Assembly (NCBI RefSeq): GCF_044324785.1
Contig: NZ_CP172127.1
Strand: one strand, 5' to 3'
DNA: 64,000 nucleotides
Source of the DNA: Escherichia coli
GTDB taxonomy: Bacteria > Pseudomonadota > Gammaproteobacteria > Enterobacterales > Enterobacteriaceae
A model generated the notes under the pieces. It searched no databases, had not been told where the DNA came from, and saw only the letters and a list, made by a program, of their open reading frames with translations. The translations under genes and the position numbers were made by a program. Positions 12,132 to 33,554 of this stretch are shown here, in pieces; positions within the stretch are counted from its first letter, which is position 1, and each line of letters starts with the position of its first letter.

Positions 12132-12295
12132 AGTTCAGCCTTCTGAATGCGTTAAAGAGGGTACAAATTCTGTCGAACTGGGGTATACCCGCAATTATAC
12201 CCACACAATGGGGTTGATGTGGGGGGAATCTGGTTGAGTTCGGTAGAATTGATTTGGAGGCAGAACGCTTAAATTGTGGCGTTCTGAAACGAAAA

Positions 12296-12317
12296 ACGGA
12301 CCTCCGTGGAGGTCCGT
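12296..12317 (-). terminator. Rho-independent terminator hairpin downstream of the tRNA-Phe 3'-end copy
   Basis: Perfect palindrome ACGGACCTCCGTGGAGGTCCGT followed on the minus strand by TTTTCGTTTC. Confidence 0.5.
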
Positions 12318-12328
12318 TGATATGAATT

Positions 12329-18008: not shown

Positions 18009-18097
18009 ACTTTGCTCCTTATGAATGAATTAGCGGTATAAACGAAAAGGCCGCGTCTCCCGGAGAAGACGCGGCCTGATGGATGAAATGAAGACGT

Positions 18098-21034: not shown

Positions 21035-21997
21035 ATGACGGCACAACAAAGTGATGCGCTGCGTGAGATTGCTAATAAGGCCAGAGTTACCACCATTCTT
21101 CAGTGTAAGGCCTGGAAAGATACCCAGCGAATACTGAAGCGCAGCGGACTCGTGTGCAGAGAACGGTCAGAGCCGTTTGATCCGGAGAAACATTTTGACT
21201 GTTATACGGTGCGTTATCTGTACCTGCTTAACATAATGGCACTTGAGCTAAAGTCAGATACACGGATTAAGGTTGAGGTGGGGCAATGGTATCGCATGAC
21301 GGGTAAACGTTTATCACTTAATGTCCCGCCTTTTATGCTGATCCCGCGTAATATCCGGAGAAAAGTGGACGGATTCAGACAATCCAGACAATCAGAAGAT
21401 GAAGCAACCAAAAATCCGCCTCAACCGTTCACGGGCAGTTTGTATAAGGTTTTGAGCAGGGACAGCGATTCGGCTGAGCTGGACGCCTGGTTTGCTGAAC
21501 CGCCGCTGACACGGCAGGAAGTGTGGGAGGGGAGGCGTGTTACAGATTTTGATCCATGGGCGCTGTCTTCGTTTATTTGCCGTTCAGAATCCCCGACGTT
21601 TGAACTTTTTTACCAGGAATATAAGCGACTGGGATTAAAATCTCTTTTTGTATCAGGGGTAATGTTTGAACAGTTTTTAACAGGGCTAAGTTTCAGAAAA
21701 TATGGGGACTGGGTTGAATCTCAGTTACTGGAATCACTGGGAAATGTGATGTTTTTCATGCTGCTTTATGACATGGAAAATCTGGATAAGTTTATAAAAG
21801 AACTGATGGACATTAATGTTCAAAGTGAAGATTCGAAGGAAAAAGGGAAATCACGAAAAGAGAGAATGCTGGAGTATATCAACTCATATATCCGCAATGT
21901 TTATGGAAGATTCCTTTGTACGTCAAAAGAAAGGTACGAACAGCATAAACGCAAAAACAGCAGCAAAAAGAAAAACGGTTCTGGTGGAACTCATTAA
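21035..21997 (+). CDS. Hypothetical protein, no recognisable family; basic Lys/Ser-rich C-terminal tail
   Basis: 320-aa ORF; ATG at 21035 preceded by GGGAGG; stop overlaps stop of convergent ORF. Confidence 0.5.
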   Translation: MTAQQSDALREIANKARVTTILQCKAWKDTQRILKRSGLVCRERSEPFDPEKHFDCYTVRYLYLLNIMALELKSDTRIKVEVGQWYRMTGKRLSLNVPPFMLIPRNIRRKVDGFRQSRQSEDEATKNPPQPFTGSLYKVLSRDSDSAELDAWFAEPPLTRQEVWEGRRVTDFDPWALSSFICRSESPTFELFYQEYKRLGLKSLFVSGVMFEQFLTGLSFRKYGDWVESQLLESLGNVMFFMLLYDMENLDKFIKELMDINVQSEDSKEKGKSRKERMLEYINSYIRNVYGRFLCTSKERYEQHKRKNSSKKKNGSGGTH

Positions 21998-22863
21998 CGG
22001 GAATAATCCCCTGCTGTTTTCTGCATAAACAGACGATCAGCTGATAAGATGAGTTTATCCAGCATTTCAGCCTGCGTCAGATTATTCTTTTTTGCCATTT
22101 TCCGGAGTGCATTCCTGGCTTCCGGAGAAATCAGGGCACTTATCTGTACCCGGGAATCGGTTTTCTCATACCGGAACATTTTCTGGTATGAGCACTTCAT
22201 GCGCCTGAGAAAATCATTCTGCTGATAAACTAATTCTTTTAACTTTTGAGGTTCAGTACCGACAGAATAGATTTTCATGAAGACACGGCGCACATAAGCT
22301 ATTATGAACAGACGTGACTCCCCTGAAGCTTTAAATTCTGAAATATCAGGACAGTGACGTTCTTCGTCAGTGCAATGTTTTTGCAGATACGCCCATGCCC
22401 ATTTGATATGTATCCGCCGGGAACCAAGCCATGTCATGGGGTTCACTTTTTCAGCATATGACCATAAAAAATGAACGACATACAAGAAGTCAGATACATT
22501 TTCTGTCCCGGTTAGCCTTATAAGCTCCTGTAGCCATTTTCTCGTCACACGAATCCTTGCCTGATGATTAGCTGGAGCTGCTTCTGTGGCAAACAGTCTG
22601 GCATACAGACAGGAAGTTCCGTAATCTGCATATTGCTCACCTGAGAGTCGGACAATACTGTCAGGAACATGATATATAAACATCCATACCCAGAATGCGG
22701 CTACAGGGTCTTTTTGCACCCACTCCGGAACAACGTCTCTGCCTGCATTATCAGCATTAACAGAAGGTGATTTATCGTTATGTCGGTAATATTCATATTC
22801 CATCCGACTAAAAACATGATCAGATTCATCTGGTGAATGCACAGACATGAACTCCCTGGGCAT
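21994..22863 (-). CDS. Hypothetical protein with C-terminal RHH-like segment
   Basis: 289-aa ORF; C-terminal SPEARNALRKMAKKNNLTQAEMLDKLI; alternative start at Met6 (22848) preceded by AGGGAG. Confidence 0.5.
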   Translation of the reverse strand: MPREFMSVHSPDESDHVFSRMEYEYYRHNDKSPSVNADNAGRDVVPEWVQKDPVAAFWVWMFIYHVPDSIVRLSGEQYADYGTSCLYARLFATEAAPANHQARIRVTRKWLQELIRLTGTENVSDFLYVVHFLWSYAEKVNPMTWLGSRRIHIKWAWAYLQKHCTDEERHCPDISEFKASGESRLFIIAYVRRVFMKIYSVGTEPQKLKELVYQQNDFLRRMKCSYQKMFRYEKTDSRVQISALISPEARNALRKMAKKNNLTQAEMLDKLILSADRLFMQKTAGDYSR

Positions 22864-23810
22864 AAATGCACAACCAACTCTATAGAACTCTTTACCCCCC
22901 CTCTTATCACCTCTGTCAGTAAATTTCGCCTGAATCCCCTTTTATCCATACATCAGAAAAAATGCAATAACGTTCATGGACTCTTTTCTCTGATTTACAT
23001 AAAAACACAGAAAATTACAATGTGATTAATATCGCGTTTTTTTAAAAAATTATATTGACATCATGTTATTTCCTGTAGTTTGCAATAAAAAATTTTCTTA
23101 AAATATTTATATGAATATTTTTGATGCCTCAACATGCTGTCGTTATATAGAGTGTCTTCTCATCATTTATGGTTATTTCTCTCAATGCGCATACGCTCTG
23201 TCAGGGCATGTCTGTAGCTGCCATGATGGGGAATGAGAACTCAGCAAAAGGATTTTGGATGCAGTGAAGTTCTCCCGGAGACGGTTCTTCTGAGGTGGGG
23301 GTGGCATCATATCCTCTTACATAAGATGATGGCGTGCGCGGGAAAGCTTTCTTCTGTACTCAGGTTGTTGTTGGTTATCCCCGGTCGTCATTGTTTTCCT
23401 GACATTAAGATCCTGATTCCAGGATCTATAGCACAGTCGTTTCCTTGTGTGCTGTTATGCTTCTGCTCAGTTCAGAACAATTGCTTCATCCGGCATGGAG
23501 AATTCCGGTGAGTGAGGCAGTAAGAAATGACTGACATGAATGTTATATGTGAAGGGGCCGGAGAGACGTCATAATCAGTATGGCTGTCATTCTGGCTGGA
23601 AAATGCGATCACTTTCCGGGGTAAAAGACAACATGGAAGCTGACGAACGGGATGCTCCGGATGGTCTTTTCAGGGAGGCCTGGGTAAATAATTTCAGAGT
23701 AAATCTGTATGTTTTTTAAACAGTAAAGATCCATGCTGGCCGTGAAAAACTGAAATCAACACTCAGTCTGCATGGATGTCTGAAGATGTTGAGAATGTCG
23801 GGAATGGTAC

Positions 23811-23954
23811 TATACACGTATTTTACTAAGTATTTTTACTAAGCATTTCAGTAAGTGTTATACACGTATTTTCTACTAAGTGTTTTACCAGACATACACG
23901 TATTTTCATAAACACTTCTACAAGTGTTTTCGTTAAGCATTGCTATACACATCC
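23811..23954. repeat. Iteron-like direct repeats in a 1.6 kb AT-rich non-coding region
   Basis: TATACACGTATTTT at 23811 and 23859, ATACACGTATTTT at 23894, degenerate CTATACACATCC at 23943; interspersed ACTAAG and AAGTGTT motifs. Confidence 0.6.
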
Positions 23955-24468
23955 AGTTTAGTAAATCTTTACGTTAACTAAATCAGTTTAATGCTGCTGT
24001 AAAACCTTTCTGTTTAAGCAATCAATCTGCTATTCGATTTTACTGATGTTACGTTTAACCTTTCCTTAGATTTCGAGTTTCGACGTTAGCTTGAGAAAAG
24101 TATCTTTACGTAAAGCCCAGTGAATTAACTCAAATCCGATTGAGGTAACCTGATGCGATTTACTGTGAGTTTGCGATAACACTGTTAAATGGCTTATGGA
24201 TGATTTTGTAACGGCGAGATTGATAAGGTGATTAACTGGCCCTGGTGTTTTTTCTCAGCGTAAGGTGATTATCTTCATCATAAGGCTCTTTTCAGAAAAA
24301 GTGTGATGATTGGTTGTGGTGTTTTGATTCAGATGAGGATCTGCCAATGATTATGATGTATTGTAAGAAATAACGCCTTCAGAATGTTGGAGCATGCACT
24401 TACACAAACTGTTTTTCTAAAATTAAGGGAACAGTTTAAAGAGTATAAACTGTTCATCTTCTTCAGGA

Positions 24469-24999
24469 TTAAGCTACATTGTTGTTATGACTGACAGGAT
24501 TGTTTTCTTCCCCTGACTCTGGGCTTAACAGTCCCTGGCGTTGTAGATATTCACTGACTGACATTCCAGAACTACGGATCCTGTCAGAGATTTTACGAAA
24601 TTGATCCTTCCATTCTGCAGGTAATTTCTTAATTTGTCTGACTTTACAGGCTACACTGTACGGGGTTCGCCCTAGTTTCTCTGCCAGCCAGAAAAGGTGT
24701 TTACCAATTTCATCGTCCGGTACATCCTCCAGAACATCTCGCAATAAACTCTCGTCTGCCTCATTCCATGCCACACCAGCATTTGGGAAACGAGGATCGA
24801 TCTCTCTTTCCTTCTTCTCCTTCTTACTTTGCTCTTTTCGGGATGATACAGATACGACAGAACGTTCTTTTACCGCTGTAATTGCCATAACTGCATTGAG
24901 CAGAGATCTGCGCTCCACATCGTTCAGCATTTTTCCTTCACAGATCAAATCATTCAGGATGTCAATGACTAGATTCAGACTTTCTTCTGTTAGCTTCAT
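24469..24999 (-). CDS. Hypothetical protein, possible DNA-binding (helix-rich, acidic and basic patches)
   Basis: 176-aa ORF; ATG at 24999 with AAGG upstream; 10-bp perfect inverted repeat just 3' of the gene. Confidence 0.5.
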   Translation of the reverse strand: MKLTEESLNLVIDILNDLICEGKMLNDVERRSLLNAVMAITAVKERSVVSVSSRKEQSKKEKKEREIDPRFPNAGVAWNEADESLLRDVLEDVPDDEIGKHLFWLAEKLGRTPYSVACKVRQIKKLPAEWKDQFRKISDRIRSSGMSVSEYLQRQGLLSPESGEENNPVSHNNNVA

Positions 25000-25668
25000 A
25001 TTTCAGACCTTGAAGTATGTAGATAATCAGCACAATTACTAATGTGATAAATATCAGAAGATAATTTACAGGTAAACCGGAAAATACATCTGAAGAATAA
25101 AGGCCTCAGCTTAACGTTTCAGCCAGTTTGTGAGCTGATTGAGGTACGGCGATGACATTAACGGGAATTACTCCCCTATAGCTCTGAGCTTATTTTTCAC
25201 CCTGGCAACATATGGTGGCTACTGCGCATGGTTTTGGAGTAGATATCTTACTACTCGTAGAATTGTGCTTACTGGTCAGGCCAGCGCACAGGCATTCCGT
25301 GCAATCAATAGAACACTGGTTTTTTAGTCTTCCGTTACCCATCAGGATGTTAGTGCAGATTCCGGTGTATTCGATCAGTTGTTCGGCGAATCAGCGATCG
25401 ATCACGATGCGATTTCGTATGTTAGGGATGCTGGTATGATTACTCGCTGAAAAATAATGTGAAAAGGCAGTTTTTCTTTAGACATTTAGCTCATTCATGC
25501 TGTTGTTTTACGTTTTGCTGTCGTGTGCAGGATTATCTTTTCGTTACGGGACGATTCATTCCGTTTTAATCAGGAGCTATTGGCGTTGCTCATTGGTGGG
25601 ATGCCGTAAAGTTTTACCGCGGCGATTAATGATGTGAAGTCAATCCAAATCAACGGAGATCTCTCATC

Positions 25669-26400
25669 ATGAATCAACCAATACACAATGATTACTGGTT
25701 ATCCCGTTTTGAAAGTATTCTCAACAGTGCCCTGGTGCAACACCGTGCCGTCTCGTTAATCCGGGTGGATTTACGTTTCCCTGAGCATATGCCTGTCACC
25801 ATCATGGATCCCGATCCGGATTCAGCGGTGATTTCTCGTTTTTTCGAATCCCTGAAAGCCAAAATTCAGGCTTACCAGCGGAAAAAACGACGTACCAACA
25901 AGCGTGTGCGTGCAACCACCCTGCATTATTTCTGGTGTCGGGAGTTTGGCAAGGAAAAAGGCAGGAAACATTATCACGTGATATTACTGCTCAACAAAGA
26001 TACCTGGTGCTCGCCAGGGGATTTCACCGTTCCTTCTTCGCTGGCGACGCTGATCCAACTGGCATGGTGTAGCGCTCTGCATCTTGAGCCCTGGCAGGGT
26101 AATGGACTGGTTCATTTTTCCAGGCGGACGCCTTTCCGTAAACCGGCATCATCTGATGCTCGCCCTTCTTCCGATGATACGCCTTTGTCGGGTGGATGTT
26201 CTGAAACCAGGAAGGCTTCAGACAAAAAGCCGGGTGAAGCCGCTGTTCTCTGGATCAAGCGTGGTGATGTGGAAGCGATGCAGAAAGCCATGGAGAGAGC
26301 CCGTTATCTCGTGAAGTATGAGACGAAGCAGCATGACGGTTCTGGTCAACGTAATTATGGTTGCAGCCGTGGAGCGGGGCGTCTACTGGATGGCAGGTGA
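25669..26400 (+). CDS. Gp2/YagK-like family paralog (HYHV motif)
   Basis: 243-aa ORF; RKHYHVILLLNKDTWCSPGD; ACGGAGAT upstream of ATG. Confidence 0.5.
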   Translation: MNQPIHNDYWLSRFESILNSALVQHRAVSLIRVDLRFPEHMPVTIMDPDPDSAVISRFFESLKAKIQAYQRKKRRTNKRVRATTLHYFWCREFGKEKGRKHYHVILLLNKDTWCSPGDFTVPSSLATLIQLAWCSALHLEPWQGNGLVHFSRRTPFRKPASSDARPSSDDTPLSGGCSETRKASDKKPGEAAVLWIKRGDVEAMQKAMERARYLVKYETKQHDGSGQRNYGCSRGAGRLLDGR

Positions 26401-26726: not shown

Positions 26727-28331
26727 ATGAATTCCGCTTATATGCAATCCTTGCAGACATCCCACCACTTCCCAGCTGATTTAACCTACAGATTATTTCC
26801 TAGTGAGCTTGCATATCTCATTGACGACTTATATGAAAGTACCCAACTTCCGCTGGAGCTCATTTTTAATACTGTACTGGCAACGCTCTCACTCTCCTGT
26901 CAGTCACTGGTTGACGTTGTTCATCCTCACACCAACATGCCGGAACCCTGCTCACTTTATCTGTTGGCAATCGCAGAGCCAGGCGCGGGAAAAACAACGA
27001 TAAACAGACTGGTGATGAACCCCTGTTACGAATTTGCCGATCGACTCATTCAACAATACGAAGAGAGAAACAAAGATTATAAGACTGAACTACAGATCTG
27101 GAATACCCGGCAGAAAGCGCTTGCTGCCAATTTAAGAAAGGCTGTTAACCGGGGGTATCCGGGGGAACAGGAAGAAGAGGCGCTGCGTAATCACGAAAGA
27201 AATAAACCGACACGTCCGGTTCGACCGAATTTTATCTATGAAGATGTTTCGCTTAAAGCGCTTGTGGAAGGGCTCAATGAACATCCTGAGGCAGGGGTTA
27301 TTTCTGACGAGGCGGTCACTTTTTTCAGAAGCTATCTGAAAAATTATCCGGGCCTGTTGAATAAAGCATGGAGTGGACAACCGTTTGATTTTGGACGGGC
27401 TGACGAGAAATACCATATCACGCCACGTCTGACATTTTCGTTAATGTCCCAGCCGGATGTCTTTACGAATTATATAAATAAAAATGACGTACTGGCGTGG
27501 GGAAGCGGATTTCTTTCCCGGTTTCTGTTCAGTCAGACCGGAAGTCCTTCCCGGGTACGGGATTATACGAGAGGCGAGTTCAGAACAAAACCAACCCTGG
27601 AGAAGTTTCATAAAAAGATTAACGGATTTCTGTTAAGCCATAACATTAATTCCCCCGGTATGAGCACCGAAAGGAAAACATTAAAACTTGCAAAGAAAGC
27701 GTTGGGGGAGTGGCAGGAAAACCAGATTAAGATTGAAAGAAAAGCGCTTGCAGGAGGGGAGTGGGAACACATCAGAGATATTGTTCTGAAAGCAGGTTCT
27801 AATATACTGAGGATAGCTGGAATATTCACCTGCTATTGCTATAAAGATGCTGAGGAAATTGAATCAATTGCGCTTTTTAAAGCTATGCATCTCATGGACT
27901 GGTATCTGGAGGAGGCGAGCACAATATTTTATCCCATGTCTGCACGATGCCAGTTTGAACAGGATGCCTGTGAACTGTATGCATGGATTATGACCCGAAT
28001 AAGGCAGAATAATTGGCGTGCTATCAGGAAAACAGACATTGAAAGATATGGTCCCAATCGTCTGAGAAGAGCAGAAAAACTTACACCTGTACTCAATCAG
28101 TTAATCGCTCAAAATTATTTCCGTATCATCAAGATGCGATCGCATCAGGCACTTTATGTTTCTGCTCTTGATAATAATGGTTACATCCTTCCTTTCGGCG
28201 CAATGTCTTACGAACCGTTTGATATTGTTCCACCCCAGTATAACCATAATGCGAAAACATATTCCGTTGTTATTCCACCGGCATTAATTCAGTCATTTAC
28301 ACCTGATTCCTCAGCTTACACCTTATTTTAA
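26727..28331 (+). CDS. YfjI-like P-loop protein (DUF3987-like), putative NTPase
   Basis: 534-aa ORF; Walker A AEPGAGKTT; strong SD GAAGGAGG. Confidence 0.6.
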   Translation: MNSAYMQSLQTSHHFPADLTYRLFPSELAYLIDDLYESTQLPLELIFNTVLATLSLSCQSLVDVVHPHTNMPEPCSLYLLAIAEPGAGKTTINRLVMNPCYEFADRLIQQYEERNKDYKTELQIWNTRQKALAANLRKAVNRGYPGEQEEEALRNHERNKPTRPVRPNFIYEDVSLKALVEGLNEHPEAGVISDEAVTFFRSYLKNYPGLLNKAWSGQPFDFGRADEKYHITPRLTFSLMSQPDVFTNYINKNDVLAWGSGFLSRFLFSQTGSPSRVRDYTRGEFRTKPTLEKFHKKINGFLLSHNINSPGMSTERKTLKLAKKALGEWQENQIKIERKALAGGEWEHIRDIVLKAGSNILRIAGIFTCYCYKDAEEIESIALFKAMHLMDWYLEEASTIFYPMSARCQFEQDACELYAWIMTRIRQNNWRAIRKTDIERYGPNRLRRAEKLTPVLNQLIAQNYFRIIKMRSHQALYVSALDNNGYILPFGAMSYEPFDIVPPQYNHNAKTYSVVIPPALIQSFTPDSSAYTLF

Positions 28332-32962: not shown

Positions 32963-33554
32963 TTTTGTTACCTCGCGCTGTCAATGGAAGTAGTACCTCA
33001 TCCGATATCTGAAAATGTTTTCCGGTGGATGTTACAGCGAATTTCATGTAAGACATGTTGTTGTCGGTATTGTTCAGTACTGTGCGTTGTGAGCGTATTC
33101 GTTATCAGACAGAGGGGCAGGGAACAAACGTCAGAGGTTAAGGATATCCGGGAACAAATGGCGTAAACGGACATCTCAGTGCCTGAGAAACAGTACAGGT
33201 CAGGCCATCATGGCCTGCAAACAGAGCCCTGGCGACCCCGTGGCCGAAAACGAAACAATAACCCGCGCGCAGTGCGAGGAATCCGGATGTGAAGCAATCA
33301 GCAGGTAATATTAATGGCAGGACCAGCAGGTTCTTTAAACAAACGAACATGCTGTAATTGATATTTTGCTTATTGTATTTTCTTTTTAGTTATTAAATTA
33401 ATTTATTTACGAAAAATTTTCTGCAGATACAGGATGGGAATTCAGGGTGTCATCACGCCTTATGATGACACCCTTCCCCTGGTTGTGGAAAACCGAAGGA
33501 TATATCAGGTTCAGCAACAAAATCAGTGAGCTGAAAGATACCAGTCCCCCAGCT

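Follow-up and report, generated by a model that had tools for sequence, protein, structure and literature searches.

Myb/SANT domains are three-helix bundles in which helices 2 and 3 form a helix-turn-helix (HTH). The PF18780 repeat, named 'homing endonuclease associated repeat' (HNH_repeat) in Pfam, is only a putative DNA-binding module. GcrA of Caulobacter, an alphaproteobacterial cell-cycle regulator, binds sigma-70 through a C-terminal domain that is different from its DNA-binding domain. Among mobile units, the 'morons' of prophages consist of promoter, gene, and terminator, are found inserted between conserved genes, and are associated with fitness or lysogenic-conversion roles. Here, we analysed a gene coding for a 176-amino acid (aa) protein (RefSeq WP_000778605.1, named in databases only 'DNA-binding protein' or 'hypothetical protein') and the perfect inverted repeat that follows it. 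Both are located in a 64-kb stretch of Escherichia coli DNA (contig NZ_CP172127.1), called the window below, which is a genomic island of the CP4-57/CP4-44 type. The joint reading that we favour, with somewhat better than even confidence, is that the gene belongs to an accessory cassette, that its product is a DNA-binding protein built of a helical hairpin, a linker, and an HTH domain, and that the inverted repeat is the gene's own terminator. The coordinates of the features are given in Table 1.

The Gene and the Predicted Fold of Its Product

The 176-aa open reading frame (ORF) is a real coding gene under purifying selection, because its start and motifs are kept in homologs of 40-63% identity, the nucleotide similarity of Klebsiella loci is limited to the coding sequence (CDS) and ends at its boundaries, and third codon positions diverge fastest. 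The divergence at third positions among homologs was 0.59-0.78, which is two to three times that at positions 1 and 2; this pattern indicates purifying selection. An earlier note on this DNA had placed the ORF exactly, including the ATG start, and had it facing away from the plus-strand module to its right. The gene is indeed divergent from the YagK/YfjJ-like and YfjI/DUF3987 genes located there. The 'good' Shine-Dalgarno sequence described in the same note is present, but it is moderate, not strong, with a 4-nt AAGG core 8 nt ahead of the ATG.

The structure of the protein was predicted with AlphaFold2. The model consists of a helical hairpin, a disordered linker, a five-helix domain that contains the HTH core, and a disordered acidic tail. 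When residues 66-158 were remodelled alone with 26 diverse sequences, five helices were obtained, with a predicted local distance difference test score (pLDDT) of 92.5 and a predicted template modelling score (pTM) of 0.84. Within this domain, residues 78-124 are predicted with high confidence to form a three-helix HTH of the homeodomain/Myb-like fold, which consists of helix 1 (W78-D90), helix 2 (H101-L109), a turn (G110-R111-T112), and helix 3 (P113-K124). The corresponding sequences are W-N-E-A-D-E-S-L-L in helix 1, H-L-F-W-L-A-E-K-L in helix 2, G-R-T in the turn, and P-Y-S-V-A-C-K-V-R-Q-I in helix 3. This is the segment (WNEADESLL...KVRQI) that had previously been described as resembling an HTH, and the model bears the description out. 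The most conserved stretch of the family contains helix 3, and the motif LGRTPYSVACK is the putative recognition helix. Three conserved tryptophans (W78, W104, and W130) follow each other at intervals of 26 residues. In the fold comparison of the HTH core, the tabulated figures were 6.4 for engrailed, 6.3 for Rap1, 5.9 for Reb1, 5.6 for the DNA-binding domain of GcrA (PDB 5yiu; root-mean-square deviation (rmsd) 1.6 Å, 25% identity), and 5.2-5.5 for c-Myb. A metal site made of C20 and C118 was considered and rejected, as distant homologs have S, M, A, or L at the position of C118.

No family could be named for the protein from the sequence in the earlier note, and this was confirmed: hmmscan gave no significant match in Pfam, NCBIfam, PHROGs, or PADLOC. 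The best sub-significant matches, NikA-like (E = 0.011) and phrog_323 (E = 0.003), both cover short stretches. A characterised prophage regulator among the homologs, which by the same note would have spoken against its reading, was searched for and none was found. The family profile, however, retrieved from 1.8 billion proteins two that consist of tandem repeats (E = 3e-8 and 5e-5), and Pfam identifies both of them as PF18780. In a comparison by hhalign, an alignment of C-terminal domains (A2) matched 14 PF18780 units over 52 columns, at residues ~96-148 (Prob 95.1%, E = 3.1e-8), a result weakened by the origin of the 14 units, which were taken from proteins retrieved by the family profile itself. 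The 176-aa protein gave no match to the PF18780 model at E <= 10 and stays below the gathering threshold of 26 bits. Direct matches were obtained with 2 of the 26 C-terminal domains of the family (best E = 0.0017), and none of the domains reaches 26 bits. A remote homology of residues ~96-148 (helices 2-4) to PF18780 is supported statistically by the profile alignment. We describe the domain as one PF18780-like unit with a Myb-like first helix as its cap, the two together making up a homeodomain-like HTH.

The domain aligns with the 54-residue unit of PF18780 and has the LA-x-KLGRTP motif and a C-terminal small-residue G-L motif in common with it. It differs in having one unit, which is joined to a helical hairpin, instead of tandem repeats, and in lacking a nuclease domain, whether HNH or of another type. 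Moreover, an extra N-terminal helix with the Myb-like motif W-x-x-E-[DE] completes the homeodomain-like three-helix core. No HNH domain was found in the neighbouring genes. Because the protein is below the Pfam threshold and has no nuclease partner, we do not file it in PF18780. The relationship would mean that a PF18780 unit can occur singly and outside nucleases.

The predicted C-terminal domain is also built as expected of a Myb/SANT domain, with a three-helix bundle in which the second and third helices make up the HTH. It shares with this group the pattern W-x-x-[ED]-[ED]-x-x-L in helix 1 and W-L-A-x-x-L-G-R-T in helix 2-turn-helix 3. In contrast to Myb/SANT domains, it is bacterial, is borne by mobile elements, and has two extra C-terminal helices. 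Membership in the Myb family at the sequence level was ruled out, since there is no Pfam Myb/SANT match and the tryptophans are spaced by 26, not 18-19, residues. A comparison by hhalign with Myb repeats, the sequences of which were entered by hand, covered helix 1 only (Prob 8%). As regards GcrA, HMMER found no match to it at the sequence level, and the HTH of the 176-aa protein is C-terminal, after the hairpin, whereas the DNA-binding domain of GcrA is N-terminal.

When PDB was searched by Foldseek with the full-length model, matches were limited to the N-terminal hairpin, and a search of the C-terminal domain against BFVD gave nothing significant. The hairpin superimposed on the dimerisation hairpins of SGTA/Sgt2 and ING4 with an rmsd of about 1.1-1.7 Å, at Foldseek E-values that were not significant; the template modelling (TM) score was 0.77-0.81 when normalised to the SGTA domain and 0.42 for ING4. 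We infer from these superpositions that the hairpin mediates dimerisation. In the mechanism that we propose, the protein would dimerise through the hairpin, a flexible linker rich in K and E would join it to the C-terminal HTH, and the LGRTPYSVACK helix would give sequence-directed DNA binding. The protein may act as a transcription regulator or a DNA-organising factor of mobile elements. Its candidate targets are the 5' flank of its own gene, the promoter of the divergent YfjJ-like gene, and the iteron-like repeats to the left of the cassette. The architecture of a dimerising hairpin with a PF18780-related homeodomain-like HTH is testable and makes the protein a candidate regulator of mobile-element biology.

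DNA binding is the most likely activity of the protein, but there are points that weigh against it. In addition to the lack of a significant family match, sequence searches of PDB, both with the profile and with the protein on its own, gave nothing significant (E >= 0.47), and in 22 of 26 members the C-terminal domain carries a net negative charge (-3 to -9; pI about 5). A net-acidic domain is commoner among SANT domains that bind proteins than among Myb domains that bind DNA. An alternative, which we regard as unlikely, is that the protein is a SANT-like protein-interaction adaptor and not a DNA binder, docking onto a host or mobile-element protein, for example a ~190-aa winged-helix-like protein. 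The acidity of the domain would suit such a role, and the weak sequence matches in PDB are SANT domains (DNAJC2, E = 0.47; SMARCC, E = 1.4). In four diverged plasmid loci, the gene comes after a conserved pair of genes, the products of which are 85-89 aa and ~190 aa long. However, at least 5000 plasmids carry this pair, and many of these lack the 176-aa family; in the window, no such partner accompanies the E. coli island copy. Helices 2-4 are basic (+4 and +2), the segment of helices 2 and 3 (+4) being the most conserved one, and PF18780 units are thought to bind DNA. We therefore prefer the DNA-binding reading.

The Inverted Repeat Downstream of the Gene

The inverted repeat has the sequence GAACAGTTTA-aagagta-TAAACTGTTC and is followed on the gene strand by the tail CCUUAAUUUUAG. 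It had been described correctly as a perfect 10-bp repeat at the 3' end of the gene that could be a terminator or a regulator site. Of these two options, the terminator is favoured by the position, the fold, and the tail, and the regulator site is disfavoured by non-recurrence and by absence near homologs. We propose with moderate confidence that the palindrome serves as an intrinsic (Rho-independent) terminator of the 176-aa gene within the mobile cassette. As is required of an intrinsic terminator, a stable stem-loop stands right after the stop codon. The hairpin folds at -10.2 kcal/mol, the tail contains at least five U in the 8-nt scan window, and the site passes a simple terminator scan. 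In the proposed mechanism, the palindrome would close the transcription unit of the cassette and would not be the operator of the protein. The window contains six distinct loci with perfect inverted repeats (arms >=10 bp, loop 3-10 nt), whereas first-order Markov shuffles predict 0.48, which indicates that, as a class, such repeats are real features and functional elements. The five other repeats are probably terminators or binding sites.

Several properties of the palindrome speak against a terminator. The stem is AU-rich, with three G-C pairs by the terminator scan, the U tract is interrupted, and the z-score of the fold in its context is only -1.9. The cassette is invariant within E. coli, and this makes covariation of the hairpin uninformative. 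Finally, the 8-mer AAACTGTT, which is the core of the repeat arms, is found in five copies in the window, three of them within 50 bp at the palindrome, and the three clustered cores could mark a protein-binding site instead. On the RNA, an alternative hairpin could form between the third copy and the 3' arm.

It is slightly less probable than the adaptor described above that an operator for the dimeric HTH protein, or for another regulator of the island, is formed by the palindrome and perhaps also by the third AAACTGTT core. Such an operator would act on the conserved noncoding region to the left, controlling either transcription that starts there or read-through that enters it. The perfect dyad symmetry, the AU-rich stem, the clustering of the cores, and a promoter-like site on the plus strand just upstream are in agreement with this explanation, and the predicted dimerisation hairpin on its flexible linker could span half-sites 17 bp apart. 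With this centre-to-centre spacing, however, the half-sites do not lie on the same face of the helix. An operator is, in addition, a dyad located in a promoter, recurring, and conserved together with its regulator, and the palindrome, which lies 3' of the gene, does not fit this description. The earlier note had suggested looking for it in promoter regions of the island. With at most one mismatch, the half-site occurs four times in the window, where 3.8 occurrences are expected; two of the four are outside the palindrome and stand isolated, so there is no recurrence beyond chance. No copy was found near the gene in the upstream and downstream DNA of eight homolog loci, though the putative recognition helix is highly conserved. 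The chance-level recurrence and the absence at the homolog loci rule out the palindrome as a recurring operator of the island, and the terminator remains the preferred reading.

Another terminator-like hairpin (CTGAGGCCTTTATTCTTCAG with a T-rich tail) is located on the same strand ~90 nt upstream of the ATG of the gene, and a sigma-70-like site is found ~350 nt further upstream. The two could belong to a short leader or a small RNA within the cassette. An unannotated 50-aa ORF rich in Cys is located between them. A scan of positions 22000-26000 with Rfam gave only STnc410, which is a chance-level match.

The Cassette and Its Relatives on Plasmids

The inverted repeat, the gene, and its 5' flank make up a segment of 1154 bp. 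The flanks on both sides (window positions 23686-24337 and 25492-26400) are conserved in related islands, and islands without the 176-aa gene have ~290 bp of noncoding DNA in place of the segment. In the island of strain ECONIH6, one mismatch was found over positions 24100-25500, while the flanks are 8-50% diverged. Since the segment is near-identical despite diverged flanks and is present or absent between conserved ones, the 176-aa gene behaves as a self-contained accessory cassette that is carried by recombination between islands. An 82-aa ORF annotated in the cassette slot of strain R6 was considered as an alternative regulator and rejected, because its translation is of low complexity and it is probably spurious. 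The cassette resembles the moron units of prophages in its composition of a gene, a 5' flank, and a 3' hairpin, as well as in its presence or absence between conserved flanks and its essential identity where the flanks diverge. It differs in its host, which is an integrative island and not a functional phage, and in having only a promoter-like site in place of a defined promoter.

To describe the distribution of the gene, an 851-bp query around it was compared with 5426 complete E. coli genomes. It matched 676 of them, 665 at >=99% identity. A sensitive search in E. coli revealed one chromosomal allele only, plus ~40 plasmid copies of a diverged type. By tblastn against PLSDB, the family was found at ~52% identity on 2956 of 72,556 plasmids, mostly IncF (2651 from Klebsiella; 1997 predicted to be conjugative). 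The relatives of the gene are mainly a backbone gene of Klebsiella IncF plasmids, and it is not specific to this island. The family is narrow beyond E. coli: a profile search of 1.8 billion cluster representatives gave ~100 proteins, mostly fragments. Where the source of a homolog is named, the organism belongs to Enterobacteriaceae, with the exception of one mislabelled metagenome-assembled genome. No match was found by tblastn of the protein against 50,697 phage records. On plasmids, the homologs are located among small backbone genes, e.g., an Hha-domain gene and a TacA/GNAT toxin-antitoxin pair. The copies of K. oxytoca are chromosomal, at a prophage edge or adjoining folD. The literature was searched by accession and by the names of neighbouring genes, and no paper citing the accessions was found. 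The gene is common, being present in ~12% of complete E. coli genomes with relatives on ~4% of PLSDB plasmids, among them IncFIB/IncFII plasmids of Klebsiella that are of clinical importance. It has so far no family definition, structure, or literature and is widespread enough to merit a family definition. The protein is a new, uncharacterised example of a very well-known type, the small HTH proteins that mobile elements encode, and the proposed terminator of its gene is ordinary.

The gene pair that is located ahead of the homologs on Klebsiella plasmids codes for a ~87-aa protein and a ~190-aa protein (L008, 8138-8970; L005, 7144-7967; L012, 5708-6930; L014, 6351-6950; L015, 3744-4591). The latter has the N-terminal winged-helix-like motif RRPSPLQRRVL, belongs to no Pfam or NCBIfam family, and is encoded on at least 5000 PLSDB plasmids, including IncF plasmids of E. 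coli and Salmonella. An obligatory three-gene plasmid operon was ruled out, as the upstream pair is far commoner than the 176-aa family and often occurs alone.

We consider it improbable that the 176-aa protein is an accessory factor for replication, excision, or maintenance of the island, binding the iteron-like repeats or an origin of the Gp2/YfjJ Rep-like protein. The location of the gene, between the iteron-bearing noncoding region and the divergent Rep-like gene, is consistent with such a function, as is the proximity of plasmid homologs to replication and transfer backbone genes, e.g., IncFII RepA and TraX. However, many related islands retain the iterons and the Rep-like gene but lack the cassette, which is thus dispensable, and the chromosomal copies of K. 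oxytoca have neither neighbour. Just as improbable is that the family is the DNA-recognition part of an undescribed module of F-like plasmid backbones (the ~87-aa and ~190-aa proteins with the HTH protein), the solo island copy acting in trans on plasmids or on the Rep/iteron region of the island; this would imply regulatory cross-talk between islands and conjugative plasmids and reuse of a single-copy 'homing-endonuclease repeat' as a transcription-factor domain, and the link is weakened because the plasmid pair often occurs without the 176-aa gene.

Island Setting and Coordinates

The accessory cassette sits between a conserved noncoding region that bears the iteron-like repeats and the divergent gene for a Rep-like protein. 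To the left of the 176-aa gene, the island contains genes for a YeeP-like GTPase, a WYL/HTH regulator, DUF932, an antirestriction protein, a RadC-like JAB protein, and CbtA/CbeA. The genes to the right are YfjJ-like, YfjI-like, and AlpA.

Table 1. Positions of the features of the locus in the window and of the parts of the 176-aa protein.
Feature	Position	Strand	Remarks
Accessory cassette, 1154 bp	24338..25491	.	Inverted repeat, 176-aa gene, and ~490 bp of 5' flank
CDS of the 176-aa protein	24469..24999	-	ATG start; protein begins MKLTEESLN; TAA stop codon
Codons of residues 78-124	24628..24768	-	Predicted three-helix HTH core
5' flank travelling with the gene	25000..25491	-	AAGG Shine-Dalgarno sequence, terminator-like hairpin 25109-25090, promoter-like (sigma-70-like) site 25463-25436
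Cys-rich ORF, 50 aa	25190..25342	-	Unannotated
Perfect inverted repeat	24429..24455	-	10-bp arms, 7-nt loop; 13 nt past the stop codon of the 176-aa gene
Third copy of AAACTGTT	24406..24413	+	8-mer, repeat-arm core
Promoter-like site	24328..24357	+	
Other perfect inverted repeats	12295-12318, 18048-18077, 33445-33473, 42894-42921, 52799-52823		
Iteron-like array	23811..23906		Inside the conserved noncoding region 23686-24337
YagK/YfjJ-like gene	25669..26400	+	YagK/YfjJ C-terminal domain; inovirus-Gp2-type Rep-like protein
YfjI gene	26727..28331	+	DUF3987/YfjI protein
Convergent ORF, 320 aa	21035..21997	+	
Convergent ORF, 289 aa	21994..22863	-	
Helical hairpin	Residues 1-51		Helices 5-21 and 27-51; AlphaFold2, 19-sequence alignment, pLDDT 75-86
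Disordered K/E-rich linker	Residues 52-68		Residues 50-63 in the AlphaFold2 model of the full-length protein
Five-helix domain with HTH core	Residues 69-158		AlphaFold2, well predicted
Acidic disordered tail	Residues 159-176		No counterpart in the Klebsiella homologs of alignment A1

The iteron-like array consists of three direct copies of TATACACGTATTTT with start-to-start distances of 48 and 34 bp. The triplet and its spacing are kept, when one or two substitutions per copy are allowed, in three islands of ~80% identity (L009, L010, and L001), and unrelated sequence is present at this position in L011. The array has no annotated gene or Rfam family. It looks like a set of iterons and may be an origin or an operator for the adjacent inovirus-Gp2/YfjJ-like Rep gene.

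The slot downstream of the YagK/YfjJ-like gene carries cargo that varies by island: YfjI/DUF3987 in the window, and a TIR-domain protein, a restriction endonuclease, or an acyltransferase elsewhere. The same variable slot was found in L009 (5266-5970), L010 (5436-6314), and L011 (6228-6680), and it looks like a hotspot of cargo or defence genes. A second variable cargo slot is located at 21035-22863, where the window has two convergent ORFs whose 3' ends overlap by 4 bp and other islands have a gene for a 407-aa hypothetical protein. Neither the 320-aa nor the 289-aa product matches a Pfam or PADLOC family, and the C-terminal end of the 289-aa protein shows a weak match to the replication regulatory protein RepA (NF010256, E = 7.5e-5).
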